A DNA stretch of 64,000 bases from Candidatus Wolfebacteria bacterium RIFCSPLOWO2_01_FULL_47_17b (GCA_001793865.1 MGIS01000024.1:21525-85524), one strand, 5' to 3'; counted from the stretch's first letter, positions 4,150-64,000 are shown. The notes: a model not told the origin generated them from the sequence alone. A program made the numbers and translations.

Positions 4150-4156
4150 TACATTG

Positions 4157-5231: not shown

Positions 5232-5658
5232 CGAAGCCAAGACAATTTTAGAGGAGATACTTTCCCGAATGGGCTTTTCGGATTTTTCGGTGCAACAAAG
5301 CGAGGACGGAAAGCGATGCGCGGTGTTTGTAAACGATGCTCCGTTTCTTTCTCGGCAGGTGGCTGGGTTTATGCTTGATCTGGATACGGTGCTACGGCTT
5401 ATACTCAAGAAAAAGAATCTGCCATTCGTATTTGTGGACGTGAATAACTACCGCAAGGAGCGTGAGGAGATTATTATAAAGCTTGCGAAGGCCGCTGCTC
5501 GAAAGGCGCTGGCCGAAAAAACCAATGTGCCACTTCCGCCCATGAATGCGTATGAACGCATGATTGTGCATACGGAATTATCGCTGCATCCGGAACTTAA
5601 GACCGAAAGCTTCGGCGAAGGGCCGAACCGACACGTTGTCATTCGTCCATTCCAATAA
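5224..5658 (+). CDS. jag: Jag/KhpB-like RNA-binding protein (KH/R3H)
   Basis: C-terminal R3H-like 'GEGPNRHVVIRP', synteny after yidC. Confidence 0.7.
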   Translation: MHNEAKTILEEILSRMGFSDFSVQQSEDGKRCAVFVNDAPFLSRQVAGFMLDLDTVLRLILKKKNLPFVFVDVNNYRKEREEIIIKLAKAAARKALAEKTNVPLPPMNAYERMIVHTELSLHPELKTESFGEGPNRHVVIRPFQ

Positions 5659-9942: not shown

Positions 9943-9998
9943 GATACGTTTATTTTATCACATATTTGGTCTGTCTTTCTTATTTGTTTGCTATACAC

Positions 9999-10100
9999 AA
10001 TTTCGAATTCTGAATTTCTAATTTCGATTCAATTTTGAATAACTGAAGTTTCGAAATTAATGCATTAGAAATTGATTCGAAATTCGGAATTGGAAATTAT
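9999..10100. repeat. AT-rich GAATTTCGAAT-type palindromic intergenic repeat, copy A (diverged)
   Basis: Shares 'gaatttc/gaaattc' motif architecture with copies at 25.9, 26.6/27.0, 41.6 and 45.1 kb. Confidence 0.6.
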
Positions 10101-10194
10101 AAATTATATGAATTATCCACACATCTTCGATTTGCGCGTAAATAATGTGTTATACTGTTTGAAAGGCCCTAAAAGCAATCACTAATTATTTATT

Positions 10195-25923: not shown

Positions 25924-26030
25924 TTTTTAATTATGATTTTCGAATTTCGAATCAATTTTAAATGACTGAATTTCTAAAATCAATACATTCGAGTTTGACT
26001 CGAAATTCAAAATTAGAAATTCGGGATTAT
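25924..26030. repeat. AT-rich GAATTTCGAAT-type palindromic intergenic repeat, copy B (solo)
   Basis: ~90% identical to copies D and E. Confidence 0.7.
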
Positions 26031-26039
26031 ACCTAAAAC

Positions 26040-27075: not shown

Positions 27076-27738
27076 ATGGCAGAGGTGACATACGCTCCGA
27101 ACTCCACTCAGCAGTTTGTGGATGTGGAGCGGATCAAAAACGGAATTGTGGAGCTACGGAGCGGATCCATTCGGTCCGTTATTATGGTTGGCGGCGTAAA
27201 CTTCGAGCTGAAATCTGAAGAAGAACAAAACAGCATAATCGCCGCGTATCAGAATTTTTTGAACGCGCTCGATTTTTCTCTGCAGATACTGGTTCATTCG
27301 CGCAAGCTGAACATCGATCGATACCTGGATAAGATGCAAGGGATTCACGAAAAAGAGCAAAACGATCTTCTGCGCAATCAGATAGCCGAATATATCGAAT
27401 TTGTACGGGGGTTTGTGAAAGAAAATGAGATTATGGCAAAAAACTTTTTTGTCGTAGTGCCGTATGACGGAGGCGGCGTCGCGGAGCTCAAAAAAGGCAT
27501 TTCGAGCGTGCTACCGTTTTTCGGTAAGAAGAAGAATGCTGCAAAGGGAAAACAGGAGACCTATGAGCAGAAAGTGGTGCAGCTTAAGCAGCGCGTGGAT
27601 GAGGTGGTAAGCGGGCTTGAGCGGATCGGTCTGCGGGCAATCCCGTTGCAGGACGATGAGCTCACGGAGCTATATTACAATTTATACAATCCGGAAACAG
27701 TCGAAAAAGAACTGAAAAAACATGGAGCAGAAGATTAG
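27076..27738 (+). CDS. VirB4/TraC-like conjugation ATPase, N-terminal portion (split gene)
   Basis: N-terminal VirB4 region 'ELRSGSIRSVIMVGGVNFELKSEEEQNSIIAAYQNFLNALDF'; ends at A6 tract 27731-27736. Confidence 0.6.
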   Translation: MAEVTYAPNSTQQFVDVERIKNGIVELRSGSIRSVIMVGGVNFELKSEEEQNSIIAAYQNFLNALDFSLQILVHSRKLNIDRYLDKMQGIHEKEQNDLLRNQIAEYIEFVRGFVKENEIMAKNFFVVVPYDGGGVAELKKGISSVLPFFGKKKNAAKGKQETYEQKVVQLKQRVDEVVSGLERIGLRAIPLQDDELTELYYNLYNPETVEKELKKHGAED

Positions 27739-29476
27739 GATTTCACAAAAGAATATTTCGGAGGACAGTGAAGTGAAAAATCTTATCGCTCCGGCGGCAA
27801 TCCAGTCCAATCAGTCGCACTTGAAGGTGGGAAATAAATTTGCGAAGACGTTTTTTGTTTTTTCGTACCCACGGTATCTTTCGAGCGGATGGTTTTCGCC
27901 GATTATCAATCTCGCGAAGTTGTTTGATATATCCATTTTTGTGCACCCGGTGGATACCGCGTTGGCGCTTCGCAATTTGCGCAAAAAAGCGGCGCAGGTT
28001 GAAGCCGAGATTCTGGACAGGCAGGAAAAGGGATATGTGCGGGACCCCATGCTTGAAACCGCGTTCGGCGACATCGAGGGCTTGCGGGATAATCTTCAAC
28101 AGGCGCAGGAGCGGTTGTTCGATACGGCGGTGTACGTAACCATCTATGCCGAGACGCTTGAAAAATTGCAGGAATTGGAGGATACACTGGTGAACTTATT
28201 TGAGAGCAAGCTCATATACATCAAACCGGCAATTTTCCAGCAGGTGGAGGGCCTCGTGTCTACGTTGCCGCTCGCGCAAGACAAGCTTGCGATTCATACG
28301 CCTCTGAATTCCGGCCCGGTATCGTCGTTTTTTCCGTTCACGTCCATGGATCTTACGTCGGAGAACGGGATAATGTATGGCATAAATTTGCACAATAATT
28401 CGCTTGTGCTCTTCGATCGATTTTCTTTGGAAAACGCGAACCAGGTTGTGTTCGCCAAGTCGGGAAGCGGAAAATCGTACGCAACGAAGCTGGAAATTTT
28501 GCGTACGCTTATGATGGGGACCGAGGTAATCGTGGTGGATCCGGAAAAAGAGTACAAGAATTTGTGTGATACCGTTGGAGGCACGTATTTCAATGTATCG
28601 CTTACGTCGGATCAGCACATAAATCCTTTCGACATACCATTCGTACCGGAAGGAGAAGATCCGGCAGATGTATTTCGTTCACACATACTGACGATGGCGG
28701 GGCTTTTGAAGATTATGTTGGGAGATATTGCCGTGGAAGAAGAAGCTCTTCTGGACCGGGCTATAAGTGAAACATACTCGTCGTTCGACATTACACCGGA
28801 TAATCCTAACTTTTTAAAACTGGATGCGCCTCTTCTGTCCGATTTTGAGACCGTTTTGCGAAATATGGAGGGCGGAAAAGATATGGCGGAACGATTGTAT
28901 AAATATACACAAGGAAGCTACGCGGGGTTCGTGAATCAAAAGACAAATATAGATGTGCAGAACCGGCTGGTTGCGTTTTCAATACGAGATTTGGAGGACG
29001 AGCTGCGGCCGATTGCCATGTATGTCATCCTTAACTTTATTTGGAACTTGGTGCGGTCGCAGATGAAACGGCGCATACTTGTGATAGATGAAGCATGGGT
29101 GATGATGAAATACCCCGAAGGGGCAGCCTTTTTGTTCGGGATGGCGAAGCGCGGGCGTAAATATTACCTAGGCCTTACCACTATCACGCAGGAAGTTGAC
29201 GACTTTCTGAATTCGCCGTATGGGAAGCCTATTATCACCAACTCGTCGTTACAGCTTCTTTTGAAGCAAGCACCAGCGACCATAGATACGGTTGCAAAGA
29301 CGTTCAACCTGACCGAAGCGGAGAAGAATCTTTTGCTTGAGGCGGGCGTGGGACAGGGAGTGTTTTTCGCGGGATTGAAGCATGTTGCCATGCAGGTGGT
29401 GGCCTCGTACTTTGAGGATAAAATTATTACGACCAAGCCGCAACAATTATTATCGGAAGAGGAGCCACTCGTATAA
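27722..29476 (+). CDS. VirB4/TraC-like conjugation ATPase, C-terminal ATPase portion
   Basis: Walker A 'AKSGSGKSYATK', Walker B 'RRILVIDEAWVMM'; overlaps upstream ORF in +1 frame. Confidence 0.8.
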   Translation: MEQKIRISQKNISEDSEVKNLIAPAAIQSNQSHLKVGNKFAKTFFVFSYPRYLSSGWFSPIINLAKLFDISIFVHPVDTALALRNLRKKAAQVEAEILDRQEKGYVRDPMLETAFGDIEGLRDNLQQAQERLFDTAVYVTIYAETLEKLQELEDTLVNLFESKLIYIKPAIFQQVEGLVSTLPLAQDKLAIHTPLNSGPVSSFFPFTSMDLTSENGIMYGINLHNNSLVLFDRFSLENANQVVFAKSGSGKSYATKLEILRTLMMGTEVIVVDPEKEYKNLCDTVGGTYFNVSLTSDQHINPFDIPFVPEGEDPADVFRSHILTMAGLLKIMLGDIAVEEEALLDRAISETYSSFDITPDNPNFLKLDAPLLSDFETVLRNMEGGKDMAERLYKYTQGSYAGFVNQKTNIDVQNRLVAFSIRDLEDELRPIAMYVILNFIWNLVRSQMKRRILVIDEAWVMMKYPEGAAFLFGMAKRGRKYYLGLTTITQEVDDFLNSPYGKPIITNSSLQLLLKQAPATIDTVAKTFNLTEAEKNLLLEAGVGQGVFFAGLKHVAMQVVASYFEDKIITTKPQQLLSEEEPLV

Positions 29477-31058: not shown

Positions 31059-31396
31059 GAAAAGATCCTCAAACGCTCCTTAAACACATTAAAGAGAGTA
31101 TCGAATGGGTTGAATCATATGTTGCAGGACTTTCGTTTGAAGATTTTTTTAGATCGCAGGAAAAACAGGATGCCGTTTCAAAACGATTGGAGATAATCGG
31201 CGAAGCGGTGAAAAATCTTCCGCAAGAAATACGGGATGCACACACAGAGATTCCGTGGAAAGAAATAACAGGTATGCGGGATCGGCTTATACATGAGTAC
31301 TTTAGCATTGATGCGGAATTGGTGTGGGATACGATTGGATCTGATATGACGAAGTTAAAAAAATGGGTTGTGGAATTCTTGAATAAAAAGGAATAA
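31055..31396 (+). CDS. hepT: HepT-like HEPN (DUF86) toxin
   Basis: HEPN R-x4-6-H motif 'RDRLIHEY'; 4-nt overlap with mntA. Confidence 0.75.
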   Translation: MRKDPQTLLKHIKESIEWVESYVAGLSFEDFFRSQEKQDAVSKRLEIIGEAVKNLPQEIRDAHTEIPWKEITGMRDRLIHEYFSIDAELVWDTIGSDMTKLKKWVVEFLNKKE

Positions 31397-33240
31397 TGAA
31401 AACAATTTTTATAATTTTATTTGTGCTCCCCATCTTTTCTTTCGGTACCGTTGTATATGCGCAGACGACGACGATATCAAGTAGTTCGCTTGCGCTGGAT
31501 CAGATACCCGGAGACCCAACCAACCCGCAGGGGCCGGCGGATCTGGTGCAGAAGATATTTGCGTTCGCGATATACATTGCAGGCACGCTTGCGGTCATTA
31601 TGATCGTATACGGCGGCGTGCGGTATGTGGTTGAAGCGGGCAATACCGCGTCGCAGACCGAAGCCAAGGAAGTATTGAAAGGAGCGGTATGGGGAATTAT
31701 CCTGCTTGCCGGCGGTTGGCTGATACTCAATACCATAAATCCCCAGCTTACCAATCTTTCGAACCTGGGCTTGCAAAACGTGACGATACACGGGAATACG
31801 TCGCAGTTAGAGCCGCCCGAGGGGCAGTTTGATACGGGTGGTAATCTTGGTGATAATACTCTCGGGTGTACGGTTGAAAATATAGGGATGTCGTACAATG
31901 ATCCAAACAGTGGATTGCAAAAGATTGCTATTGATTACCTTGCTACCACTCCAAATCTGGATTCTGGTGGAGATTGTGGCGTGAATACGAGTCCGAGAAA
32001 CATTGTTAATGCGGTTGCGGGCGGTACCATCCCGCAGGTATGTGATCGGAGCGACAAAAATCAATCATGTAGTTGCGAGCAAGGAGGTGATACGAATAAA
32101 AAAACGCTCTGTCCACTTCTTTTGCAGCGGCTTACTATTCTTCAGCAGAATGCAAGCGTGCTTCCATCATTCACAATTGAGAGTTTGACGGGGGGAGATC
32201 ATTCGCCGGGATCAACTCATTATCAGGGAAGAGGTGTTGATATTACTGTGCCGGGAGGCAGTATTGGTGACTGGCAGAATGTGCGTGCGGCAATGGTGCA
32301 AGCCGGATTTCGGTCTGCAAAATTTGAATACAATAGGAATGGCAGACCATACTTTTCTCCAGGAAGTGGAAATGACGGCGACTTCCTCGCATCAGGGAGT
32401 ACAAACCAGCATATACATGCTGAATCAGGAGGAGCAGGAAGCCCTCCTCCAGGTAGTGAAAATCAATTATTGGAAGATTTGAAGAATCTTGCATTGCAAC
32501 TTGACTTGAATAAATTTAAGGGCGATATGTCCTGGGGGCTTCCATCGAGTACCCTTGATCCTACGTATACATGTAATGCGGGATCCGATCCGCGCTCAAT
32601 TATCAGCGAGACCTCAAAGATGAATCTTCCGATGGTGTGTGATACAAGCGCGTACGGGACGATCCCGGGAACCGATAACGTTTTTTCGGTTGACTGTTCA
32701 TGTAATGTTGGCGGTAAAGATGGAGTTCGTGTGTTGGATAAGCGTTTGCTCCAGAAACTCGTTTCCCTACAAGAAAGCGGTATTGACTATAGGGTCGTTT
32801 CCTTAACGGGAGGCGTACATAAAAATGACGGAATTGCGAGTAGTCACCATTATAGCGGTACCGCGCTGGATGTGGTTCCAATGAGCGGCTCGGTAATATC
32901 TCAAAATCAATCTGATTGGATTGCGCTGTATAATGCTGTCAAATCTGCTCAGCCGATCGCCGGAATCGTTGATTATATATACGATGAGGTGAACACGGAT
33001 TCCAAGATCGTATTTGAAGGGGTTACGCCGATTGAGTATAGGTGGATTGATAGTATTATTACAAAGCCTACTAATGATACTTTGGCATTGCTTCAGTGCC
33101 CCACAATGAATTTCAGCGGGAGCAGTCCAACACATTTGTACAGCATATTTGAGATTAAAAATCCCATCGCAGATTCACGCTTTCATACCGAGATTATAGG
33201 GAGGTGCTACAATCCGCGTATTCGAGCAGTCGTGAATTAA
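31396..33240 (+). CDS. VirB2/TrbC-pilin-like N-terminal domain fused to large Cys-rich extracellular region with two M15/LAS-peptidase-like repeats
   Basis: Signal peptide plus two TMs; repeats 'HSPGSTHYQGRGVDI' and 'ASSHHYSGTALDV' resemble 'SxHxxGxAxD' Zn-site of M15 peptidases. Confidence 0.4.
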   Translation: MKTIFIILFVLPIFSFGTVVYAQTTTISSSSLALDQIPGDPTNPQGPADLVQKIFAFAIYIAGTLAVIMIVYGGVRYVVEAGNTASQTEAKEVLKGAVWGIILLAGGWLILNTINPQLTNLSNLGLQNVTIHGNTSQLEPPEGQFDTGGNLGDNTLGCTVENIGMSYNDPNSGLQKIAIDYLATTPNLDSGGDCGVNTSPRNIVNAVAGGTIPQVCDRSDKNQSCSCEQGGDTNKKTLCPLLLQRLTILQQNASVLPSFTIESLTGGDHSPGSTHYQGRGVDITVPGGSIGDWQNVRAAMVQAGFRSAKFEYNRNGRPYFSPGSGNDGDFLASGSTNQHIHAESGGAGSPPPGSENQLLEDLKNLALQLDLNKFKGDMSWGLPSSTLDPTYTCNAGSDPRSIISETSKMNLPMVCDTSAYGTIPGTDNVFSVDCSCNVGGKDGVRVLDKRLLQKLVSLQESGIDYRVVSLTGGVHKNDGIASSHHYSGTALDVVPMSGSVISQNQSDWIALYNAVKSAQPIAGIVDYIYDEVNTDSKIVFEGVTPIEYRWIDSIITKPTNDTLALLQCPTMNFSGSSPTHLYSIFEIKNPIADSRFHTEIIGRCYNPRIRAVVN

Positions 33241-39978: not shown

Positions 39979-40785
39979 ATGACTATTTTACTGTATGGGC
40001 CTGATACGTATTCCAGACAATGCAAGCTTGTCCAGTTTCGTGAAGGAGTCGTGAAGCGCAATCCTGATGTGGTGCAGGGCTCGTTTGATTTGAGTGAAGA
40101 TGGCACGCTGTATACGCTACACGAGTTTGCATCGGTGCGGGGGCTCTTTTCGCAAGGAAAGCGCATTGCGGTTGTGCGCGGCGCTCTTGGTTTTTTTGGC
40201 AATGAAGCTTTTGTCCGAATCGTATCCCGCGCGGCGCATGATCCAGACGTGCTTTTGCTTTTGCAGGAAGACCGGGACAGAAAATTAGACCGAAAGACGG
40301 AATCGTTCTGCAAAAAGAATGATATACAGGTGCAATATTTTGCAAAACCGACCGTTGCAACAGTGCGTACACGGGTGCAGGAGCACGCTGTATCAATCGG
40401 TGTTACGATCGATTCTCGGGCGCTTGATTTTCTGATTGAAGCGCGTGGGCAGGATATATACGCGTTAGTATCGGACATTGATAAATGGTCCGCCGTCAGC
40501 ACGAAAATCGATGTACCGTTTCTTTCAAAGACGGGCGAGTATGCTGCGGGAATAGGCGTATTCGATTTTTCTCAATCGGTGTTGTACCGAAAACCGCTTG
40601 CGGAGCGGCTCTCGCTGTTTGAGCGCGTTTCTTCACAAGGGATTGATCTATACGCGGCGTTCAACATTATCGCGAAAATGACCGCTTCCAAGGATCTTAT
40701 TGATTTGCTTGCCGCCGCGGATCTGAAAATAAAAAAAGGCCTTTTGGATATACAGCAAGCGATGCTTGCTGTGGTTATAGATTAG
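39979..40785 (+). CDS. holA: DNA polymerase III delta subunit-like
   Basis: Size/N-terminal pattern 'LLYGPDTYSRQ'; weak. Confidence 0.4.
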   Translation: MTILLYGPDTYSRQCKLVQFREGVVKRNPDVVQGSFDLSEDGTLYTLHEFASVRGLFSQGKRIAVVRGALGFFGNEAFVRIVSRAAHDPDVLLLLQEDRDRKLDRKTESFCKKNDIQVQYFAKPTVATVRTRVQEHAVSIGVTIDSRALDFLIEARGQDIYALVSDIDKWSAVSTKIDVPFLSKTGEYAAGIGVFDFSQSVLYRKPLAERLSLFERVSSQGIDLYAAFNIIAKMTASKDLIDLLAAADLKIKKGLLDIQQAMLAVVID

Positions 40786-41218
40786 GGGTTTTGGCGTAGA
40801 AGCTTGTATGGTTGAGGGGCTTTGTTTGATGTTTGTCTTTAAACGAATTCCACGCAGTGGCAAGGTTGAATAGTTGTCTCGATGTAATGTCGTAGACGGT
40901 GATGAGTTCAGTGCAGAGCGAAATTTCAATCCTGTAGATATCCTTGATTTGTTCAAGTCCCACGATTGTTTCGTTGCTTTCGGCCATTGCGTCATCAAGA
41001 TATTTTTGAAACCCGCGTTTTTGATGACGTTTTGCATAACCTTCTGCGATAAGACGAGGCACAGCTTTGCATGATCGTGATAGCTGATCTTTTAAATCAT
41101 ACCTTTCGTTAAGAGGTAGTTTTGGAATAATTTTAGTCATCAAAATAACACAGGCGTTGTAGCTGTTTTTATATACTTCTAAGTCCCGAAAACTTCTTAT
41201 GGGTTTTTTTATTTCCAT
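40775..41218 (-). CDS. four-helix-bundle protein (23S rRNA IVS-protein family)
   Basis: 'FRDLEVYKNSYNACVIL...QLSRSCKAVPRLIAEGYAKRHQKRGFQKYLDDA' classic TIGR02436-type pattern. Confidence 0.8.
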   Translation of the reverse strand: MEIKKPIRSFRDLEVYKNSYNACVILMTKIIPKLPLNERYDLKDQLSRSCKAVPRLIAEGYAKRHQKRGFQKYLDDAMAESNETIVGLEQIKDIYRIEISLCTELITVYDITSRQLFNLATAWNSFKDKHQTKPLNHTSFYAKTPNL

Positions 41219-41599: not shown

Positions 41600-41720
41600 T
41601 AATATATTTAATTTTTAATTTTGACTTTCGAATTTCGAATCAATTTTTAATGATTGAATTTTCAAAATTAATACATTCGAGCTTGATTCGAAATTCAAAA
41701 TTAGAAATTCGAAATTATTA
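41600..41720. repeat. AT-rich GAATTTCGAAT-type palindromic intergenic repeat, copy D
   Basis: Near-identical to copy E including upstream 'tatatttaatttttaattttga'. Confidence 0.7.
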
Positions 41721-45015: not shown

Positions 45016-45049
45016 TGTGCAGTGTGATATAGTTATGTATTATAGGAAT

Positions 45050-45165
45050 ATATTTAATTTTTAATTTTGATTTTCGAATTTCGATTCAATTTTAAATGAC
45101 TGAATTTCTAAAACTAATACATTCGAATTTGACTCGAAATTCAAAATTAGAAATTGGAAATTTTT
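45050..45165. repeat. AT-rich GAATTTCGAAT-type palindromic intergenic repeat, copy E
   Basis: Sequence near-identical to copies B and D. Confidence 0.7.
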
Positions 45166-45171
45166 AAACCC

Positions 45172-46996: not shown

Positions 46997-48487
46997 ATGA
47001 ATATAATGCGAATGTTACGAAATCGGAGCCCAAAGCTCGTAAGGTTTGGCCTTGGTTTGCGAAGGCCGAACCTTGGTTTTACGAGCTTTGGATGTAAGAA
47101 TTCTTTCACCCTGATTGAGCTCCTCATCGTCATAGGCATCCTCGCCATCCTCACCGCCGCAGTCGTCATCCTCCTCAACCCAGCAGAAATGCTCAAAAAA
47201 GGACGGGATGGTACCCGTATGCAGGACATTGCTTCGCTTGATACAACCATATCACTTCTTGAAACACAGGTATCCAATCTTGATCTGGGCATCGCCCAAA
47301 CCCTCTATATATCCATTCCCGATCCATCCCTATCAGGATCATCTACATCCACCTGTTCCTCACTTGGACTTCCAACACTTCCGAGCGGTTATACCTACCA
47401 CTGCGTATCCCAAGACAATCTCCGAAACGTAGATGGTACTGGCTGGCTCCCCGTGGACTTTACCCAATCGGGCATCACCTCTCTTCCCGCGCTTCCCATC
47501 GATCCTACCAACAGCACCTCTACAGGTCTTTTCTATCGCTACATACCCGGAGGCAGTTATCACTTGGAAGCACTACTTGAATCAAACAGCTATCTAGCTA
47601 CCGCTCAAAGTGATGGTGGCTCTTCTCCCTCTGCATTTGAAAAAGGATCCAACCTTACTCTTATGCCTCCCACCTTTCCTACCGGCTATGTGAAAGTACC
47701 AGGCAACTCAACCTTCGGTACCTCTGATTTCTATGTCATGCAGTATGAGGCGAAGTGTTTTGATGAAAACAACCAACCTCTTCCCTATACCACCGGAGAT
47801 GGAGGTGAGGGAGCAACGTACAACATATATCGAGACCTTTCATTCCCCTGCACATCCGCAAACAACAAGTATGTAGGATCCGCACCCACCGGAGCTCCTA
47901 TTACCCGCGTATCCCAAACAAACGCAATTGCCCGATGTGAAGCATCGGGTGCACATCTCATCACCAATAATGAATGGCAGACCATCGCGTGGAACATACA
48001 AAATAACGCAGTCAACTGGAGCGGCGGATCGGTGGGATCTGGTACCGTACCTCGTGGAAATTCAAACACGTCCGCGGCCATGAGTGACGCCTCTACATTG
48101 AGCGGAGTCAATTATCGAAAGCACATACTTTCAAACGGAAATGAGGTGTGGGATATGGCAGGAAATGTCTGGGATTGGACAAGCGATACCATTGTGGGAA
48201 CTAACAAACCCGCAGGCACGGCAGGTTCGTGGGTTGAATTTACCGCCGTATCAAATTACGGGACACTCTCCCGCTCACAGTTTGGTCCCGTTGACAGCTC
48301 GTGGAGTGCTACGCAAGGTCTTGGTCGCTACTATATGGGAACCGCCGATGGAACAACTTACGCCTTTCTACGCGGCGGCGATTGGGGTGATAGCACGAAC
48401 GCGGGGGTTGAGACGCTGTACCTGACCTACACGCCGGGCTATACGGAGAAGCTACATCGGGTTCCGTTGCGCGAGGTAGTCGTGTAG
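46997..48487 (+). CDS. DGR target protein: type IV pilin-like N-terminus plus C-terminal C-type-lectin/FGE-fold variable region
   Basis: Prepilin-type helix 'FTLIELLIVIGILAILTAAVVILL'; C-terminal VR (48360-48480) matches TR with A-specific differences. Confidence 0.8.
   Translation: MNIMRMLRNRSPKLVRFGLGLRRPNLGFTSFGCKNSFTLIELLIVIGILAILTAAVVILLNPAEMLKKGRDGTRMQDIASLDTTISLLETQVSNLDLGIAQTLYISIPDPSLSGSSTSTCSSLGLPTLPSGYTYHCVSQDNLRNVDGTGWLPVDFTQSGITSLPALPIDPTNSTSTGLFYRYIPGGSYHLEALLESNSYLATAQSDGGSSPSAFEKGSNLTLMPPTFPTGYVKVPGNSTFGTSDFYVMQYEAKCFDENNQPLPYTTGDGGEGATYNIYRDLSFPCTSANNKYVGSAPTGAPITRVSQTNAIARCEASGAHLITNNEWQTIAWNIQNNAVNWSGGSVGSGTVPRGNSNTSAAMSDASTLSGVNYRKHILSNGNEVWDMAGNVWDWTSDTIVGTNKPAGTAGSWVEFTAVSNYGTLSRSQFGPVDSSWSATQGLGRYYMGTADGTTYAFLRGGDWGDSTNAGVETLYLTYTPGYTEKLHRVPLREVVV
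48360..48480 (+). repeat. DGR variable repeat (VR)
   Basis: ~120 nt aligned to TR 48942-49060; about 10 of about 13 mismatches at TR adenines. Confidence 0.8.
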
Positions 48488-48496
48488 CAACCCCGC

Positions 48497-48526
48497 ACCA
48501 GAGCGAAGCTCGGTGCGGGGCGCAGT
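48497..48526. other. GC-rich hairpin CCCCGCACC-N-GGTGCGGGG immediately 3' of VR
   Basis: 9-10-bp perfect stem; position analogous to DGR homing hairpin. Confidence 0.5.
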
Positions 48527-48556
48527 CTGAAATCTCTCCTCTCGATCAAACAACAT

Positions 48557-48928
48557 ATGTTGCAAAATCTTGTCATCTACCAAAAGACGTATGATCTGCT
48601 GCTCTGGCTGTATCCGGTTGTAAATAAATTTCCCAAAAGCCAGCGGTTCGTGCTCGGACAGCATATTGAAAACAAAGCGCTTGATCTGCTGCAGCTTTTG
48701 ATCCGCGCGCAAGCGGCAATGGACAAGAAAACATATTTGCGGGGCATAAGCATTGCATTGGACGAACTGCGCACACTCGTGCGTTTGGCAAAAGATCTCA
48801 AGTTTATGCAATTGAAACAATATGAACAGGCGGCGGATAGGCTGAATGAGATTGCGAAACTACTCTGCGGACTTATGAAAAGGTTTATTCCGGAGTATAC
48901 TGAGAGCGCTTATCAAAAGCAGGGGTAA
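48557..48928 (+). CDS. avd: DGR accessory variability determinant (Avd), four-helix-bundle protein
   Basis: 123 aa helical, Avd/four-helix-bundle pattern, between target and TR/RT. Confidence 0.75.
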   Translation: MLQNLVIYQKTYDLLLWLYPVVNKFPKSQRFVLGQHIENKALDLLQLLIRAQAAMDKKTYLRGISIALDELRTLVRLAKDLKFMQLKQYEQAADRLNEIAKLLCGLMKRFIPEYTESAYQKQG

Positions 48929-48941
48929 GACTGCACAATGG

Positions 48942-49060
48942 ACGCCTTTCAACGCGGCGGCGATTGGAATAATAGCACGAACGCGGGGGTTGAGACGCTG
49001 AACCTGAACAACACGCCGGGCAATACGAACAACAACATCGGGTTCCGTTGCGCGAGGTAC
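48942..49060 (+). repeat. DGR template repeat (TR)
   Basis: Adenine-rich relative to VR (AAC/AAT codons). Confidence 0.8.
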
Positions 49061-49211
49061 TCATTACTTTTTGGCCCGAATGAAGCGTGTACGCACACTT
49101 CATCTGAGCCGGACGACTACTGCCTTATTCCTTCTCCAAAAGAGTAAATACACATCCCATTCTCCGCGCTGTTGCATATGCTCCGGCGCGGAGGTGGAGG
49201 GATGTTTTATT

Positions 49212-50210
49212 ATGTTTGATCAACTCACTTCATTTCAAAATCTGCACCAAGCGTATCGGGATGCGAGAAAAGCAAAAAGATATCGCCCCGCTATCCTGCG
49301 ATTTGGATGCATGCTTGAAAAGGAACTTCCAATACTGCGGGATGCATTGCGCAACGGGACGTATGTACACGGCACCTACAGGACATTTATTGTTTCCGAT
49401 TCCAAAAAACGAATCATTCAAGCAGCTCCATTTCGCGATCGAGTGGTGCACCACGCGGTGTGCAATGTGATAGAGCCATTGTTCGAGCGTACCTTTATAC
49501 ACGACTCATACGCGTGCCGAAAGGACAAGGGGACGCATGCGGCGGTCAAACGATTGCGTTCGTTCATGCAAAGTTGCGGGGGGGGGGGGTCCAGGGTCTT
49601 CTGCCTGAAATGCGACATATCCAAATACTTCGATTCCATAGATCACGGAATATTATTGGGGCTACTGAAGAAGGGGCTACGAAAAGAAACCAAGGTTGAA
49701 CCTTCGCAGACCAAGGTTCAACCTTGGTCACTTCTCAATCTCTGCGAGCAGATCATCCGAAGCGTTCCTTCGGGCGTACCCATAGGCAATCTCACGAGTC
49801 AATTATTCGCAAACATCTATCTCAATGAACTTGACCAGTATGTGAAACGCGTACTCAAAGAACGATACTATATCCGCTATATGGATGATTTTCTTATTTT
49901 GAGTACGGATGCAGAGCATTTGTACAAACAACGAGAGTGCATACGCGCATTTTTGCGGGATCGATTGAAGCTTGTTTTGCATCCAAAAAAATCATCCATA
50001 TTTCCAATCATGCCCAACGGCATAGATTTTCTAGGATATCGTGTGTTCACGCACCATGTGGAATTGCGGAGATCTACCGTACAAAGGTGGAAGAGAAAAT
50101 TCAAAAATCTTCCGGCGGATCTCAGATCGGACGCGATTCGTGATTGGAAAGGATACACGAAGCATGCGAAATCGTGGAAGACGGTTCAAGGATTGCGGAT
50201 TTTGAAGTAA
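49212..50210 (+). CDS. DGR reverse transcriptase
   Basis: 'IGNLTSQLFANIYLNELD' and 'YIRYMDDFLIL' (YxDD) motifs; upstream ORF-track start 49071 overlaps TR. Confidence 0.85.
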   Translation: MFDQLTSFQNLHQAYRDARKAKRYRPAILRFGCMLEKELPILRDALRNGTYVHGTYRTFIVSDSKKRIIQAAPFRDRVVHHAVCNVIEPLFERTFIHDSYACRKDKGTHAAVKRLRSFMQSCGGGGSRVFCLKCDISKYFDSIDHGILLGLLKKGLRKETKVEPSQTKVQPWSLLNLCEQIIRSVPSGVPIGNLTSQLFANIYLNELDQYVKRVLKERYYIRYMDDFLILSTDAEHLYKQRECIRAFLRDRLKLVLHPKKSSIFPIMPNGIDFLGYRVFTHHVELRRSTVQRWKRKFKNLPADLRSDAIRDWKGYTKHAKSWKTVQGLRILK

Positions 50211-51253
50211 TTGCGCGCGACGAACTCGTATTGCTTCATAAATAATTCTTTGAAATACGAAAGGTTGTTTTGTTCGTCAAAAAGCAGGATTGCTTTTTTG
50301 TACTCTTCCTCGTCCGTCGCGCGGTATGAAAGCGGCAATTTGTTATACGCGAGCAAGAGCGCGTTGCCGACCATTCTGCTTGTACGCTTGTTTCCATCCT
50401 CAAACGGTTGGATGTACGCAAGCAACGATATCGCAACGATTGTCTTTTCAAACGGATTTTTTATCTTATTCACCGTATTGCACGCATCTTTTATCGCTTC
50501 CTGAATTTGATATAGATTATCCAGCGGACGGTAATATGTTCCAGTTATTCCTACCGCCGTTTTGCGGATGTTGCCGGATATTTCCAAATTCTTTGTAAGG
50601 ATTTCGTGCAGATATTCGATATCCGCTATCGAAAGTTTTCTGAATTTTTTTGGATGCGATAAAACAAACGTCATTGCGTCTTTATGATTTAAAATCATCC
50701 GCGCCTCTTCGATTTTCTTGCCCTTTGCAGAAGTGTGTTTTTTGATGAGATTTTCGGTTTCGAGCAGGGTATAGGTATTTCCTTCTATTCGCGATGATTT
50801 CCAGCTGAACTCGATAATAAACCGTTCCAGCTCCTGTTTTTTGATTGCGGGAGGCACGTACTTTTTTCGTGTACGCGCGGCATCGGTTGTATTTTGAAGC
50901 ATTTTTCTCTCCTGGGTATTCAGTAGTGCCGTCTTTTGCAGTATTGAAAATATGCTCTGATTGAATCGCGTTTGAATTTCTTCAGCCCTTCGTTCGCCGG
51001 AGAAATATTTCGATATCTGTACGGGCTTCATAAGCTTGTATAGAGGTGTTATGGAATATGTGCGAGCCCGCGCAGAGCCTGTGCAGGCAATAAATCTATT
51101 CTTTTTCAGGAATGCCAAATCACGCTTTAGTGTCACGAATGATGCGCTGTGCACTGAATTGGTAAGTATTTTTTGAATTTCTCCAGAAGAAACAGGTTGG
51201 TTCGCGGGGATTATGTGGAGTATTTCAGTTTGTCTTTCATTTATTTTGACCAT
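50186..51253 (-). CDS. Fic/DOC family protein
   Basis: Fic motif 'HPFEDGNKRTSRMVGNALLL'. Confidence 0.8.
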   Translation of the reverse strand: MVKINERQTEILHIIPANQPVSSGEIQKILTNSVHSASFVTLKRDLAFLKKNRFIACTGSARARTYSITPLYKLMKPVQISKYFSGERRAEEIQTRFNQSIFSILQKTALLNTQERKMLQNTTDAARTRKKYVPPAIKKQELERFIIEFSWKSSRIEGNTYTLLETENLIKKHTSAKGKKIEEARMILNHKDAMTFVLSHPKKFRKLSIADIEYLHEILTKNLEISGNIRKTAVGITGTYYRPLDNLYQIQEAIKDACNTVNKIKNPFEKTIVAISLLAYIQPFEDGNKRTSRMVGNALLLAYNKLPLSYRATDEEEYKKAILLFDEQNNLSYFKELFMKQYEFVARNYFKIRNP

Positions 51254-59225: not shown

Positions 59226-60241
59226 TGGCGAACATCGCCCTTTTTCACATATCCGGCTGGGAACGGGAATATCTGACAAAGAAGCTTACCGATGCGGGAC
59301 ATTCGGTAGATGTGTATGACCACTCCCTTGATGCAGAGCACCTCCCCGACAAGCGGGACTACGAGGTGCTTTCTGTTTTTGTGGGATCGGCGGTGACTCC
59401 GGATGTGATCGATGCGTTTGGGAGCGTAAAGCTGATCACAACCCGTTCGACTGGATACGATCATGTGGACATTGCACATGCTCGGCAGAAAGGGATTTCG
59501 GTGGGATACGTACCGCATTACGGCGAAAACACCGTCGCGGAGTTTGCGATGGGGCTTTTGCTTACGCTGTCCCGCAAGCTGTATCTGGGTATTGACCGCA
59601 TTAAGGAGACGGCGCAATTTTCATATGAAGGACTGGAAGGTTTTGATTTGAAAGGAAAGACCGTTGGCGTAATAGGAACGGGCAGGATCGGCAAGCATTT
59701 CATACAGATGCTGAAGGGATTTGATGCGCGGGTTGTGGCGTACGATGTGTATCCGAACAAAGAGCTTGCCGCGGAGCTTGGCTATACAATGGTCTCACTG
59801 GATGAGCTGTATGCCGCAAGCGACATTATTTCCCTGCATTGCCCCTGCACGCCCAAAACAACGCACTTGCTCAATAAAGAAGCATTTTCAAAGATGAAAA
59901 AAGGAGTTGTGCTTATAAATACAGCGCGCGGCGCGCTCATTCAGACCGAAGCGCTCGTGGCCGCCCTGCAGAACGGCACGGTGGCCGGCGCAGGGTTGGA
60001 CGTACTGGAGGAGGAGGGAGTTGCATCGGATGAAATGGGCTATGTTATGCACGGCGGAAGTTTGGACAAGGCCCGTACGATGCTTGCGAACCATATCCTT
60101 ATGGATCATCCCAATGTGGTCATCACGCCGCATAACGCGTTCAATACCAAAGAAGCAAAAACCCGCATTTTAGACGCTGATTTCGAAAACATCACTTCGT
60201 TTCTCACCTCCTCCGTCCCGGCCTTTCCGGTCAAGATTTAA
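59225..60241 (+). CDS. D-isomer-specific 2-hydroxyacid dehydrogenase (NAD-binding)
   Basis: 'GVIGTGRIGKHFIQMLKGFDARVVAYD' Rossmann motif, catalytic His region. Confidence 0.8.
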   Translation: MANIALFHISGWEREYLTKKLTDAGHSVDVYDHSLDAEHLPDKRDYEVLSVFVGSAVTPDVIDAFGSVKLITTRSTGYDHVDIAHARQKGISVGYVPHYGENTVAEFAMGLLLTLSRKLYLGIDRIKETAQFSYEGLEGFDLKGKTVGVIGTGRIGKHFIQMLKGFDARVVAYDVYPNKELAAELGYTMVSLDELYAASDIISLHCPCTPKTTHLLNKEAFSKMKKGVVLINTARGALIQTEALVAALQNGTVAGAGLDVLEEEGVASDEMGYVMHGGSLDKARTMLANHILMDHPNVVITPHNAFNTKEAKTRILDADFENITSFLTSSVPAFPVKI

Positions 60242-61004
60242 TCTTGCACGGTGTTGTTTGTGCAAGATTAAATCTTGGACATTTTTGAATACAAGGATTG
60301 AATTTCGTTTGCATTTGGGTTTTGAAGCCAATTCGTTATTTCTTTCTCATATTTATCTGGCCCATTAAAAAAATCCATAAGAAATTTTCTATTTGTAACA
60401 AGTGGGAAGTTTGGTGTTCCGATATAATCTAGATGGCTACTCCATCTATACCCACTCAAATACTCCATTGCTTTTCGGGGATTCTCAACGCCTCCATTCC
60501 TCCATTCTGGAAATTTTAAATCGAGAGGATTTAGGTGGATGTAATACGGTAGGTGGAGAAGGTGTGCGTCTTTTTTAACTTCCGCAGATTTATATGTCCC
60601 TTGAAACAGTGAGCCAGATCGTTCGTATTTTATGTTGAAATACATCGTGTATGCTATTCCTATCTTCTGCATGAATTTTTGAATTCCATCTTTCTTAATT
60701 TCTTGTAGCATAAGGTGGAAGTGGTTTGGCATCAGGCAAAAAGCAAGAATGTTCACTAAGGGACTTCCTTTTCTCTCCTTTTTTAGGTTTTCTTCGTCTA
60801 TGTCTTCTATTCTTCGTTTAGTATTTTTCTCTGATGTTTCTGTTGAATTGAATTCAAATAAATCTAGGACAAGTCGTATCCTATCTTTATCTTCTTGAAA
60901 TATGTTTCTTTTATCTACACCTCTGTTGTATATATGGAAGATTTTATTCATTTTATTTTAATTCAAGATTAAATCTTGCACATGATGTGCAAGATTTAAT
61001 CTTG
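60232..61004. mobile_element. IS200/IS605-like unit: HuH gene flanked by subterminal hairpins (60232-60277 and 60964-61004)
   Basis: Left CAAGATTTAATCTTGCAC-N10-GTGCAAGATTAAATCTTG; right perfect 20-nt-arm palindrome CAAGATTAAATCTTGCACAT/ATGTGCAAGATTTAATCTTG. Confidence 0.65.
60268..60951 (-). CDS. IS200/IS605-like (RAYT-like) HuH Y1 transposase family protein, second paralog
   Basis: 'MPNHFHLML' HuH; clearly homologous to 14369-15085 product ('IYHIYNRGV', 'ERSG-LFQG-K', 'LPYYIH-N-LD'). Confidence 0.6.
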   Translation of the reverse strand: MNKIFHIYNRGVDKRNIFQEDKDRIRLVLDLFEFNSTETSEKNTKRRIEDIDEENLKKERKGSPLVNILAFCLMPNHFHLMLQEIKKDGIQKFMQKIGIAYTMYFNIKYERSGSLFQGTYKSAEVKKDAHLLHLPYYIHLNPLDLKFPEWRNGGVENPRKAMEYLSGYRWSSHLDYIGTPNFPLVTNRKFLMDFFNGPDKYEKEITNWLQNPNANEIQSLYSKMSKI

Positions 61005-61012
61005 AACGCCGG

Positions 61013-64000
61013 CTATTCCTGGAAGTAATATCGGGTGGGGTCGGTTGCGGCGAGGTAGTAGGTTTGGCCGCCGGCGCTGGAAAAGCCGAGTACATAATAC
61101 GCGACGGTGAGGAAATCGTTTGGTGATAGTGTGCCAACCTGTTCTTTGATGAGGTCTATGTGGATCGAACTGGCGCCTACGCTGTTTGGATGAATATAGT
61201 TTTGATTAACGGGGCAAGATGCGGCGTTGTCGTTCAGCACAAGCGCGGGCGCGGTGGTTTGTTTGTTGTTGCATTTACGATATGAGACGGGCAGGGCGGA
61301 TGCGCGCATGTCTTCGCTCCACTCTGCATCAAGTGCTTGACCCCCTCCGACGTGGAATGAGCTCATTGTGGCTGGGTCGCTATTCAAGAAGAAGATGACA
61401 AGCTTGGCAGAGCCGCTTCCAGTATTTTGTGTGTATAGATCCGGTATAAAAGGATATGCATCATATTGCAGTTCAACAGTAGGGGATTCTTGGCTGGTGA
61501 ATAAGATATTTGATACATATGCGGGTATGTCGATATCCCCTTTGTATGAGACGCCGACCGTTGTTGCAGTTAGTGCGGTTGCGCGGATGGCGTAAGTTCG
61601 CCCAACTTCTGATATTTGGAAGCGGTAATAATCAACATCGGCTGTACCCATCTTGACAGGATTATCGGGATCGGATACATCTTCTATAAGATAGTGTTCA
61701 TTTTCCTGTAGTTCTCCTTGCCAGCTCGCGACAAGCGCAGGCGCGAACCGTTGCATGTCGCGTTCCTCTTCGGGCGTATCCTGTAAACTCGCGAGGTATT
61801 CAAGAGTAAGTGTTGACGTGTCTGTGGTCTCGTCTTCCCCAACTTCTTCCGGGGGACCACATATATTTATTTCTCCCGGTGTCGGAGCCCCTGGGCACCA
61901 CACACTTTCCGTAATCTGCAAAGAGTTTCCGGTTTCACTTGCTCCCCATGAAGAATCAAACTCCACTGAATCAATTTTTAAGTCACTGTTATACAAGGCA
62001 AGCGTGTCTGATTCGTTTTTTATGGAGCAGGATGGGCAGGAGCTTTGTAAAAGCATGCCCGAAAAGCCTGGAAATTCTTCCAGGAATCCATTTGTGTCAT
62101 ATGCGATGATCGCATATTCGCCTGGAGACAATACTGCGTCTCCTTGCGCTGGCGTTATCGTGTGTTTTGTACCCTCTTTCTCGGTATGTTTCCAGTTCAG
62201 CAGGTCGGCGTTAGTTGTATCTTCATTAAAAATTTCTATCCATTCCCGACCATTATCTGCTCCAATCGGGTCGTAATATATTTCGGTAATCGTAACCGCA
62301 GTAAATATGGGCGAGGGGCTTGGTGAGGTGGATGGGAACGGTGAGATGGTTGGGGATGCTGACGCGGCTGGTGAGGACGAAGGTGAGGGCGAAAGTGTTG
62401 GATCGGCGTCGTTTGCTTCACTCCCTCCTACCCCTCCGCCGGAGGATGATCCCCCAGTCTGTGATGGAGTAGAATTTGTCCTTTTAGGCGTGCCGTCGGT
62501 TATCGAGGATGTGTACCATACGCGGGTCGATTCATTACGCTCCATTGTTTTACGGCTCGAAGCATTTCCCGCTTGCCACTTTGTGTTTGTAAGTGCGTCT
62601 ATGATGCCGCATGCGGCATTGAACAGGTATAGTTTCTCTCCTTCATTTGCCAACGTGCCAGTATATATTATATCTGCTTTGATCCCCGGCATAGAAGTAT
62701 CATCCGTGCGCTCAAGCAGGGCATAGGCGTCTGCCTGGATTGTTATGCTTGGAAACGACATATCCACCGATCCGTCAGCTGTTTTTAGCCCCCAACCGGA
62801 AAGGTTTATGCTTGAGTTGGAGATATTTTTCAGCTCGATCCACTCGTTTGCCGCGCTTTTGGTTGTTCCCATCCATGCGATTTCGGTTATGAGAATTGGG
62901 GAATAGGTGGGTGTCGCGTTTGTTGGAATGGAGCAGGTGTTTGGTACGGGGGATGGTGACGGAGTTGGTTTAGGCGAGAGCGTTGCTTTTAGTGTTGGCG
63001 TTGGCTTTGGTGATGCTTTTGCTTGCGGTAAGCTTGTTGAAGCCGGAGATGTTTTTGGCGAGGAAGAGGGTCTATATGTTGGGGTGGGAGATTTTTGAGG
63101 TGCAACCTCCCCGGACCGAGGTTGAATATCGGTGACAGGCGATGTGACAATCTTAGGCGAACTTATAGGAATCGTAATAATCTGCTCATTATTCGACGAC
63201 CCTCCGCCGAAGATCGAATTGATTGTATTTTCGGCGAATTCAATTATTTGGCCTATAAATGTTTTCTTTTTGGTGAGGAATTCGGGATTATTTTTATTTT
63301 TCTCGGCTTCTTGAAAGAAGAGATCTATGACTCCCGCGCTGTATTCTATTGCTTTTTTTGAAAGCAGGTTCCAGTAGTCGTTCATTACGACATTGTTTTC
63401 TAGAGTAAAATCTTTTTTTGTTGTTATTAGAGCACTTGAACCACTTACCTGTGTATAGAGGTGAAGTTCTTTTCCAGATTCGTCTTTCCCTATTCCATAT
63501 AATAGATTTCCAATCTGTATTACATCGGTTGGTTGTGGTTTACTATAACCGCTTTGAATTCCGATCGTATCTTTGCTGTAGAAATTATTATTTGAATATA
63601 CAGCGAGATCGGTGAAGAATGAGTCAAGGTTGGGGAGTATTTTTGGCGTCAAGCCTGCGTTTCTGGGTGCGTTTGCGTAGTCGGGAGCGTCGGGATTGAA
63701 TCGCTTTGCGTAATTTTCATACGGACTTCCTTCGGGATGTGTATCGTTTCGGGTATGGTCTGGCACGGATGTGTCTTCCATAAGGTGCAGAATGTGCCCG
63801 AGGGTGAATAGCGCCATTTCTTTTTCACCTTGTATCCAGTATCTCAAGGCCTCGTTCCATGTAAAATCGGATGTGGGGAAGTACGGCTGTATTTTCCCAG
63901 ACTGCATAGCGGAAAGAACCGTGGCGATGACGGGTGAATACACAAAAGATGTTTGGTTCTTGGAATCTTGCGCCCAATCCTTTGATTTCTGCCAGTTTCC
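61013..64000 (-). CDS. very large secreted protein with Zn-phospholipase-C/P1-nuclease-like N-domain, Pro/Ser/Thr linkers and two lamin-tail domains (5' end beyond window)
   Basis: 'LGHILHLMEDTSVPDHTRNDTH' Zn site-like; LTD motifs 'ILITEIAWMG...EWIELKN' and 'VTITEIYYDP...EWIEIFN'; frame open to window edge. Confidence 0.55.
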   Translation of the reverse strand, partial: GNWQKSKDWAQDSKNQTSFVYSPVIATVLSAMQSGKIQPYFPTSDFTWNEALRYWIQGEKEMALFTLGHILHLMEDTSVPDHTRNDTHPEGSPYENYAKRFNPDAPDYANAPRNAGLTPKILPNLDSFFTDLAVYSNNNFYSKDTIGIQSGYSKPQPTDVIQIGNLLYGIGKDESGKELHLYTQVSGSSALITTKKDFTLENNVVMNDYWNLLSKKAIEYSAGVIDLFFQEAEKNKNNPEFLTKKKTFIGQIIEFAENTINSIFGGGSSNNEQIITIPISSPKIVTSPVTDIQPRSGEVAPQKSPTPTYRPSSSPKTSPASTSLPQAKASPKPTPTLKATLSPKPTPSPSPVPNTCSIPTNATPTYSPILITEIAWMGTTKSAANEWIELKNISNSSINLSGWGLKTADGSVDMSFPSITIQADAYALLERTDDTSMPGIKADIIYTGTLANEGEKLYLFNAACGIIDALTNTKWQAGNASSRKTMERNESTRVWYTSSITDGTPKRTNSTPSQTGGSSSGGGVGGSEANDADPTLSPSPSSSPAASASPTISPFPSTSPSPSPIFTAVTITEIYYDPIGADNGREWIEIFNEDTTNADLLNWKHTEKEGTKHTITPAQGDAVLSPGEYAIIAYDTNGFLEEFPGFSGMLLQSSCPSCSIKNESDTLALYNSDLKIDSVEFDSSWGASETGNSLQITESVWCPGAPTPGEINICGPPEEVGEDETTDTSTLTLEYLASLQDTPEEERDMQRFAPALVASWQGELQENEHYLIEDVSDPDNPVKMGTADVDYYRFQISEVGRTYAIRATALTATTVGVSYKGDIDIPAYVSNILFTSQESPTVELQYDAYPFIPDLYTQNTGSGSAKLVIFFLNSDPATMSSFHVGGGQALDAEWSEDMRASALPVSYRKCNNKQTTAPALVLNDNAASCPVNQNYIHPNSVGASSIHIDLIKEQVGTLSPNDFLTVAYYVLGFSSAGGQTYYLAATDPTRYYFQE

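Follow-up and report, generated by a model that had tools for sequence, protein, structure and literature searches.

Does the stretch between positions 46997 and 50210 of a 64,000-nucleotide segment from Candidatus Wolfebacteria bacterium RIFCSPLOWO2_01_FULL_47_17b (GCA_001793865.1 MGIS01000024.1:21525-85524; hereafter "the window", from whose first letter all positions are counted) carry a complete diversity-generating retroelement (DGR), and if so, is this element active and what does it diversify? An initial annotation, made from the sequence alone, had proposed a complete DGR consisting of a target gene with a pilin leader, the accessory variability determinant gene avd, a template repeat (TR) and a reverse transcriptase (RT) gene. 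Every component was found in the present analysis, namely an RT, an Avd protein, an adenine-specific pair of TR and variable repeat (VR), and a prepilin-type N-terminus of the target. Three co-oriented open reading frames (ORFs) were listed on the plus strand (46997-48487, 48557-48928 and 49071/49212-50210), and the parts follow one another in the order target-avd-TR-RT. The target and RT proteins are 100% identical to two proteins of Candidatus Wolfebacteria bacterium RIFCSPLOWO2_01_FULL_47_17b, A2935_02040 and A2935_02050, respectively. Since dnaA, dnaN, polA and ribosomal genes are located in the same window, the element is chromosomal. We consider it very probable that the locus is a complete chromosomal DGR of this ultra-small groundwater bacterium of the candidate phyla radiation (CPR), with a variable target which combines a pilin-like module and a domain of the C-type lectin (CLec) kind.

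Template repeat, variable repeat and diversification machinery

TR (48942-49059, plus strand, 118 nt, 33 adenines) and VR (48360-48478, plus strand, 119 nt) were delimited by local alignment and differ by 11 substitutions and a G inserted at VR position 48451. Ten of the substitutions fall on TR adenines (48951 A>T; 48968, 48969 and 48971 A>G; 49001 A>T; 49008 A>C; 49010 A>T; 49022 A>T; 49028 A>G; 49034 A>T), and 49030 C>G is the sole exception. Every adenine-site change listed in the initial annotation is present in this alignment, and a count of 10 adenine against one non-adenine mismatch is strongly biased given 33 adenines in 118 nt (Fisher p = 8e-6). When each adenine of the TR was replaced by N, the resulting degenerate pattern occurred only in these two copies in the 64-kb window and in none of 100 shuffles; no other VR was found in the window with this pattern. 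Translated in the frame of the target, the TR reads ...RGGDWNNSTNAGVETLNLNNTPGNTNNNIGFRCAR and contains ten AAY codons, including an (AAC)3 tract at 49028-49036. No adenine substitution in the TR can create a stop codon, and about 10^17 protein variants, computed from the TR, are possible upstream of the invariant 3′ end described below.

Further alleles were obtained from ten independent contigs of the same population (L001-L010), which stem from other samples and assemblers and were retrieved by an exact search with the Avd protein. All ten have the same TR as the window, apart from a single G>A change in L009. The window, L001, L002 and L003 share a VR allele with the extra G (the +1 allele), while the remaining alleles are in frame and end ...TYYGIGFRCAR* (L004), ...TYTGIGFRCAR* (L005 and L006) or ...TYYGLGFRCAR* (L009 and L010). 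Adenine sites account for 14 of 15 substitutions in L004, for 13/13 in L005, for 9/9 in L006, where less of the VR is covered, and for 6/6 in L009/L010. Per allele, the p-value of the adenine bias lies between 1e-4 and 1e-9, and in all alleles together 20 of the 33 TR adenines vary, compared to two non-adenine sites. At least four different VR 3′ sequences thus exist in one aquifer population amid nearly identical TR, avd and flanks; L005, for instance, is 99.96% identical in the part upstream of the VR, but 97.5% identical over the stretch comprising VR and avd. VR polymorphism confined to TR adenines, which the initial annotation had suggested looking for among relatives, was therefore seen in independent assemblies of the same population. 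As the VR alleles differ almost only at TR adenines and the TR is constant in all but one assembly, retrohoming has, on this indirect evidence, taken place recently. Judged by these allele comparisons, the pattern indicates a recently active element, in which the VR would turn over much faster than expected from background mutation.

Several short contigs break off in or beside the VR, where L005 shows an N-gap together with junk sequence, as would be expected if heterogeneity of the VR within a sample disrupts assembly. An apparently different target of 506 aa in L005 was considered as a second form of the gene and rejected, as it represents an assembly gap filled with unrelated sequence. A metagenome scan, conducted in a collection without this population, returned no match for the 41-nt flank of the VR 3′ end and two unrelated chance matches for a 20-mer, and thus yielded no additional VR alleles.

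The 3′ ends of TR and VR are identical over 25 nt in the window allele, of which 22 nt (TCGGGTTCCGTTGCGCGAGGTA; VR 48457-48478, plus strand, equal to TR 49038-49059) are invariant across all alleles. The initial annotation had recognized this identity and given its length as 23 nt, which is not retained. The GC-rich 22-nt stretch resembles an initiation of mutagenic homing (IMH) site; it is unchanged in every assembly covering its full length and both of its adenines never vary. Directly after it, the sequences diverge, with GTCGT in the VR versus CTCAT in the TR. Twelve nucleotides past the end of the TR/VR homology, a GC-rich inverted repeat begins (48491-48520, plus strand), which could form a hairpin or cruciform and consists of CCCCGCACC, a bulged A, GAGC, the loop GAA, GCTC and GGTGCGGGG (9 bp + 4 bp). 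Its DNA fold has an energy of −16.8 kcal/mol (z = −3.86), and 0 of 200 shuffles fold as well. A GC hairpin after the VR had already been noted at 48497-48526; the hairpin stands, but its coordinates had to be shifted by 6 nt. In the DGR of Bordetella phage BPP-1, homing is efficient only if a GC-rich stem lies 4-34 bp downstream of the VR, and the 4-nt GRNA loop of this stem is of importance as well (PMC3240598). A function of the hairpin as transcription terminator was rejected, since no T-run follows it.

The avd gene (48557-48928, plus strand, 123 aa) lies between target and TR, as initially annotated, and its product matches PF22296 (bAvd; E 8.5e-25) and the NCBIfam equivalog model NF033474 (DivGenRetAVD) with 105 bits against a cut-off of 80. 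For the RT (49212-50210, plus strand, 332 aa), PF00078 (RVT_1) was matched with an E-value of 2.9e-22, and the best match in PDB was 8ub7_A (E 1.7e-52, residues 2-311), a reverse transcriptase of 328 aa which we take to be that of BPP-1 (bRT). This alignment, which begins at residue 2, supports the ATG at 49212 as start codon, and the start, the DGR motif and YMDD proposed earlier are all borne out by it. The motif IGNLTSQ is encoded at 49782-49802 (IGNLTSQLFANIYLNELD from 49782) and YMDD at 49878-49889; IGNLTSQLFANIYLN of the RT is aligned to IGSLTSQLFANVYGG of 8ub7 (IGNLTSQLFAN versus IGSLTSQLFAN), with YMDD conserved. Models of group II intron, retron, Drt and Abi (including AbiA) reverse transcriptases scored far below their cut-offs, and the nearest homologs of the RT all come from metagenome-assembled genomes of the Patescibacteria/Paceibacteria type. 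TR and RT are separated by a spacer of 152 nt (49060-49211, plus strand) with two predicted stem-loops. The RNA fold of TR plus spacer has a z-score of −2.1, and the two spacer stems persist in the centroid structure. By analogy, the spacer is presumed to form the 3′ part of the DGR RNA, which would bind RT and Avd and prime cDNA synthesis. An Rfam scan of the window detected a tRNA-Leu only, and no family matched the TR or spacer RNA.

As a separate observation, a second four-helix-bundle protein, which has 147 aa and belongs to the 23S_rRNA_IVP family, is encoded about 7 kb upstream of the DGR, adjoining rpsT (approx. 40775-41218, minus strand; L001 2219-2662). It is an Avd-like paralog with neither RT nor TR beside it.

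The element closely resembles the BPP-1 DGR (mtd-avd-TR-brt). Both have the order target-avd-TR-RT, an Avd, adenine-specific changes from TR to VR, AAY codons in the TR, and a VR at the C-terminus of a CLec fold, followed by a GC-rich IMH-like end and a GC hairpin; the TR-RT spacer is about 150 nt, and the RT aligns to 8ub7 over 310 residues with IGxLTSQLFAN and YMDD in common. In contrast to BPP-1, the element described here is located on the chromosome of a CPR bacterium instead of a phage, its target is pilin-like and not a tail-fiber tip, its hairpin has an interrupted 13-bp stem with a 3-nt GAA loop rather than 8 bp with a 4-nt GRNA loop, and its RT contains a G12 tract as well as a repeat-derived insertion of 13 aa. 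By homology to BPP-1, the avd-TR-spacer-RT region would be transcribed and the TR RNA would be reverse-transcribed by RT and Avd, with misincorporation opposite adenines. The cDNA would then replace the VR, guided by the IMH-like end at 48457-48478 and aided by the hairpin at 48491-48520. Such a replacement could recode up to approximately 20 codons, most of them AAY, corresponding to the roughly 10^17 variants mentioned above, and would probably yield a variable adhesin with the pilin helix as its anchor or its means of assembly.

A pilin-like target with a variable lectin domain

The target ORF (46997-48487, plus strand) encodes 496 aa from the first ATG; alternative starts are ATG 47006 (called by NCBI), ATG 47012 (called by ENA and JGI) and TTG 47057. 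In Pfam, FGE-sulfatase was matched as well as N_methyl (PF07963; residues 36-56, 47102-47164, plus strand), the latter with 26.1 bits against a cut-off of 21.2. The prepilin-type (class III) signal motif reads ...KNS|FTLIELLIVIGILAILTA, with Phe+1 at 47105 and Glu+5 at 47117. F+1, T+2, L+3 and E+5 of FTLIE are invariant in 85 homologs, and the same is true for the Cys pair of the pilin module. Cleavage of the prepilin at S|FTLIELL appears plausible from the alignment, as small residues are used at position −1 across the family. Behind the signal, a type IV pilin-like module (47105-47701, plus strand) is predicted, in which an N-terminal helix of about 50 residues lies on a β-sheet with the conserved Cys pair. 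The structure model of this module resembles type IV pilins and pseudopilins, with CofB of enterotoxigenic Escherichia coli (ETEC) among the structural matches, and it has the long α1 helix packed on an antiparallel β-sheet which characterizes the pilin fold. The prepilin-like N-terminus of the initial annotation is thus supported by both the Pfam match and the model.

The remainder of the protein is a C-terminal domain with a C-type lectin/formylglycine-generating enzyme (FGE) fold (47702-48484, plus strand). The VR forms the C-terminal end of this CLec-type fold and the 3′ end of the target ORF. TaqVP (the DGR variable protein of Thermus aquaticus, PDB 5vf4), Mtd and TvpA are among its top structural matches, and the best matches are DGR variable proteins, not enzymes, though FGE structures are also present among the fold matches. 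Modeling of the C-terminus therefore agrees with the lectin- or FGE-like end read from the sequence before. A PDB sequence search with the target gave no match, and the likeness to TaqVP was seen by fold comparison alone; unlike TaqVP, the protein begins with a prepilin signal and a pilin-like module. The description which suits the target best is that of a modular, pilin-like protein carrying a lectin domain of the DGR type. Most likely, it would act as a diversifiable adhesin, either membrane-anchored by the pilin helix or as a tip or minor subunit of a type IV filament, and we infer that it may help the bacterium to attach to particles or host cells.

Minor type IV pilins of modular build are known from other bacteria, e.g., CofB of ETEC and PilB/PilC of Streptococcus sanguinis, which are of comparable size. 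The protein described here differs from these by the kind of module that is grafted, a CLec domain diversified by a DGR, and its assembly into a filament is putative. Paul and colleagues reportedly found DGRs to be abundant in CPR genomes of the same aquifer. The element shares several traits with CPR DGRs of "DGR clade 2" (Roux et al., 2021), which are cellular elements of groundwater Patescibacteria with frequent non-adenine changes. Its target family, in which an evident prepilin signal is combined with a pilin-like module, is unlike these, as CPR DGR targets are usually without recognizable transmembrane or other conserved domains according to a global survey (Roux et al., PMC8144416). That DGRs occur in CPR genomes is established (Paul et al., 2017, as cited in PMC10221324 and PMC8867640). 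In Bacteroides, type V pilus adhesins are DGR targets (bioRxiv 2024.11.15.621889), which is similar in concept, the adhesive part of a pilus being what the DGR varies, but pilus type (V versus IV-like), host phylum and target architecture are different. In cultivated Saccharibacteria, type IV pili are needed for episymbiosis (PMC9894109). Our literature search found no paper tying DGRs to type IV pilin or prepilin targets.

More than 1000 homologs of the target were found at E ≤ 1e-3, most of them with N_methyl and FGE-sulfatase and most from Patescibacteria-type sources. Homologous loci were collected by exact protein look-ups, since a genome scan with the target alignment was swamped by the generic N-terminal pattern of pilins and yielded few relatives over the full length. 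Five of the nine resolvable loci (the window, L034, L041, L042 and L043) have target, Avd, TR and RT in the same order and an adenine-biased TR/VR pair, with 12 adenine-site changes plus one other in L034, 15/17 in L041, and 17/19 each in L042 and L043. L036 contains an Avd remnant only, and no RT was detected within 5-6 kb of the target at L035, L037 and L040. Since five of nine loci are cassettes and the others orphans or remnants, this class of target recurs with frequent decay or an arrangement in trans.

Downstream of the target stop codon, the motif [AG]TCT-N3-ATCT (often ATCTGAAATCT) was found within 90 nt in 5/10 homologous loci. The motif was defined post hoc; it occurs in 0.4% of 90-nt background windows, and none of 5000 shuffles attained as high a count. 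In the window, it is located between hairpin and avd (GTCTGAAATCT, 48525-48535, plus strand). At L034, L036, L040 and L042 it follows within about 20 nt after the target stop, including orphan targets without RT, and near-variants exist at L041 and L043.

Some of the related loci show peculiarities of their own. The cassette of a related CPR bacterium at L042 (ERZ27237554 k141_2840520, 3969-7291) is placed between rpsJ (S10) and rplC (L3), i.e., within the ribosomal protein operon. At L041 (ERZ27236928 k141_1025158, 7355-12127), two Avd-RT pairs were found within 5 kb of one pilin-CLec target, and the locus adjoins a ubiquitin-like/ThiF (Bub-type) gene cluster. L034 (DAIBZC010000005.1, 6500-7163) has genes for a GIY-YIG nuclease and a helix-turn-helix protein between target and avd, and its TR falls in a 5′ extension of the called RT ORF.

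Frameshift, reverse transcriptase integrity and alternative explanations

The G inserted at VR position 48451 shifts the frame of the last 10 codons, and the window allele reads ...TEKLHRVPLREVVV. Accordingly, the target in the window ends with HRVPLREVVV instead of IGFRCAR and uses TAG 48485-48487 as its stop codon; a frame lacking the insertion would close at the native stop, TAG 48477-48479, precisely where the TR/VR homology ends. About 115 of 120 homologs end GFRC[AVS]R*. The confidence of the structure model falls over the last 20 residues of the window target, and loss of the terminal IGFRCAR probably cripples the lectin domain. The initial annotation had correctly noted a length difference of 1 nt and an uncertain 3′ boundary of the VR, but had missed the frameshift which results from it. 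Both the extra G and the C>G change are located inside the (AAC)3 tract, and together they are the signature of RT slippage. TR/VR length differences were described for 7% of DGRs, 11 of 25 of these being frameshifting; 74% of the indels adjoin AAC, which was attributed to RT slippage, and several non-adenine changes are often seen in CPR DGRs (Wu et al., 2018, PMC5758913). The frameshift in the window fits this indel pattern. As the lesion falls in the part of the VR enclosed by its 5′ boundary and the IMH-like end, it would be replaced at the next round of retrohoming.

Two features, both missed by the initial annotation, concern the RT gene. A G12 homopolymer (49578-49589, plus strand; encoding GGGG) is the only run of at least eight G or C in the 64 kb and falls in a loop of the RT whose length varies widely across homologs. 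It is G12 and in frame in the window and L002, G10 in L001 and G9TG in L004, and could be either a slipped-strand on/off switch or a sequencing artifact. Further downstream, between motif 2 and IGNLTSQ, a 39-nt copy of a dispersed palindromic repeat is inserted in frame (49687-49725, plus strand), adding the 13 residues ETKVEPSQTKVQP. The insertion is present in every assembly covering this part of the RT, though the VRs differ. Since assemblies with different VRs have it in common, the RT with the insertion was probably active.

The dispersed repeat itself (AGGTTCAACCTTGGTCTGGGAAGGTTGAACCT, approx. 35-39 nt) has five copies in the window, all inside long ORFs: 12194-12232 (a GH3 gene), 25228-25264 (an ORF of unknown function), 47041-47079 (the target leader), 49687-49725 (the RT) and 63095-63129 (an LTD protein). 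Peptides similar to ...QPSQTKVEP are encoded by three of the copies, and the RT copy is a clean 13-aa insertion. In its in-frame occurrence the repeat resembles Rickettsia palindromic elements.

Several observations weigh against an intact, working element. The VR allele of the window is out of frame at its 3′ end, unlike nearly all homologs, which keep GFRCxR; in two of the four assemblies covering the G tract (L001 and L004), the RT ORF is interrupted there; and the foreign 13-aa insertion in the RT is absent from 8ub7 and from all 45 nearest RT homologs displayed. The hairpin loop is GAA and has 3 nt instead of the 4-nt GRNA of phage DGRs, and no comparable hairpin is evident at the related loci L034, L042 and L043, while one is present at L041; due to the differing loop and the lack of conservation in related loci, the hairpin can be given only a putative role in this lineage. 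Finally, the VR of L001 is a mosaic of the 5′ part of one allele and the 3′ part of another, so that some of the "alleles" may be chimeras which arose when variants present side by side were assembled. Broken RT ORFs and the insertion could mean that the element is on its way to decay. In this case, the VR differences would be relics, the frameshifted target (window, L001, L002 and L003) a pseudogene and the RT in the process of being lost; relatives of the target indeed occur as orphans or with an Avd remnant only (L035, L036, L037 and L040). Nevertheless, at least four VR 3′ sequences amid near-identical TR, avd and flanks argue for a turnover faster than background mutation, the insertion is shared by assemblies with different VRs, and the RT ORF is intact in the window and L002. 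We therefore consider a decaying or inactive DGR quite unlikely. Slightly less improbable, but still unlikely, is the explanation that the +1 frameshift and the varying G-tract lengths are errors of sequencing or assembly. Hypervariable VRs do break and chimerize assemblies, as illustrated by the N-gap of L005 and the mosaic VR of L001, and long G homopolymers are error-prone in Illumina sequencing, G9TG in L004 being an example; for the G tract, an artifact is quite possible. The +1 allele, however, is considered real because it is identical in four assemblies from different pipelines (NCBI, ENA, JGI and MEGAHIT) and its site is not a homopolymer. In addition, the insertion is accompanied by the C>G change and lies in an (AAC)3 tract, where DGR indels cluster (PMC5758913).

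Concerning the target, its prepilin-like helix might serve as a membrane anchor or a pseudopilin-type export signal of a binding protein facing surface or periplasm, without any part in a pilus. Neither pilus assembly genes nor a prepilin peptidase were found within the 64-kb window, residue −1 of the signal is Ser and not the canonical Gly (S, G or A across the family), and the size of the protein, about 480 aa, is far above that of major pilins, all of which weigh against a pilus subunit. On the other hand, F+1, T+2, L+3 and E+5 are invariant in the 85 homologs, as expected under selection for processing and assembly, and modular minor pilins of comparable size exist, CofB being among the structural matches. 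Moreover, type IV pili are generally encoded and expressed by CPR bacteria (PMC9938205, PMC9894109). A protein outside any pilus is thus a serious possibility, though not the one we favor. A much more remote explanation would be an enzyme of the FGE/SUMF1 type, with TR and VR as an ordinary partial gene duplication. It could be suggested by the Pfam match to FGE-sulfatase, by the FGE structures among the fold matches and by the label "SUMF1/EgtB/PvdO family nonheme iron enzyme" which NCBI assigns to some homologs. FGE has its catalytic Cys pair in the segment before GFRC (Cys336/Cys341 in the human enzyme). In contrast, the segment encoded by TR/VR between RGG and GFRC (RGGDW...TPG...) has no Cys, the best structural matches are DGR variable proteins, and the adenine bias of every allele excludes neutral drift of a duplicate. 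Consequently, we regard such an enzyme as extremely improbable and retain the DGR with a pilin-like, lectin-tipped target.

A more far-reaching proposal, which we put forward as speculative and rather doubtful, is that the pilin-plus-CLec family is a major class of CPR DGR targets and forms a programmable device for host attachment, possibly gated by slippage at G12 and (AAC)3. Gating would then take place at two levels: slippage in G12 would switch the RT on or off, and RT slippage in (AAC)3 would knock out the adhesin until the next retrohoming restores it. If true, episymbionts with tiny genomes would possess type IV pilins of modular build, with a DGR rewriting the tip that binds the ligand, and such a pilin adhesin would join the two best-supported ideas on how CPR cells find their hosts. 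DGRs as such are well known, and the element itself, an ordinary member of a known system, adds little; the pilin architecture of DGR targets is under-described rather than a new kind of system. Nevertheless, a population with a frameshifted VR allele beside in-frame alleles is a natural example for non-canonical DGR mutagenesis, and an RT gene with a polymorphic homopolymer is a useful case for studies of DGR regulation.

Further genes and repeats of the window

Convergent with the RT gene and overlapping its 3′ end by 25 nt, a gene with a Fic domain (50186-51253, minus strand; PF02661, E 3.5e-13) recurs in every long assembly of the locus; no connection of this gene to DGRs is known. At 60268-60951 (minus strand), an IS200-like Y1 transposase is encoded (PF01797, E 1.3e-8) with repeats at 60228-60280 and 60960-61007. 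The gene is flanked on both sides by pairs of palindromes of about 22 nt (TGTGCAAGATTAAATCTTG...) and looks like a transposase of the REP-associated tyrosine type.

A type IV secretion-like cluster, located at 27722-29476 and 31396-33240, comprises a P-loop ATPase of the TraG/VirB4 type and a protein with a T4SS_pilin domain. Several large ORFs without Pfam match are found near it at 20.7-25.9 kb. An AT-rich palindromic repeat of approximately 120 nt has four full copies in the window (9990-10109, 25913-26032, 41601-41720 and 45047-45166), which are 78-90% identical to the reference copy, and partial copies at 26560, 26957 and 53965. At least the copies at 41601 and 45047 are situated between called genes, and the one at 25913 begins just inside the end of the ORF 24886-25923.

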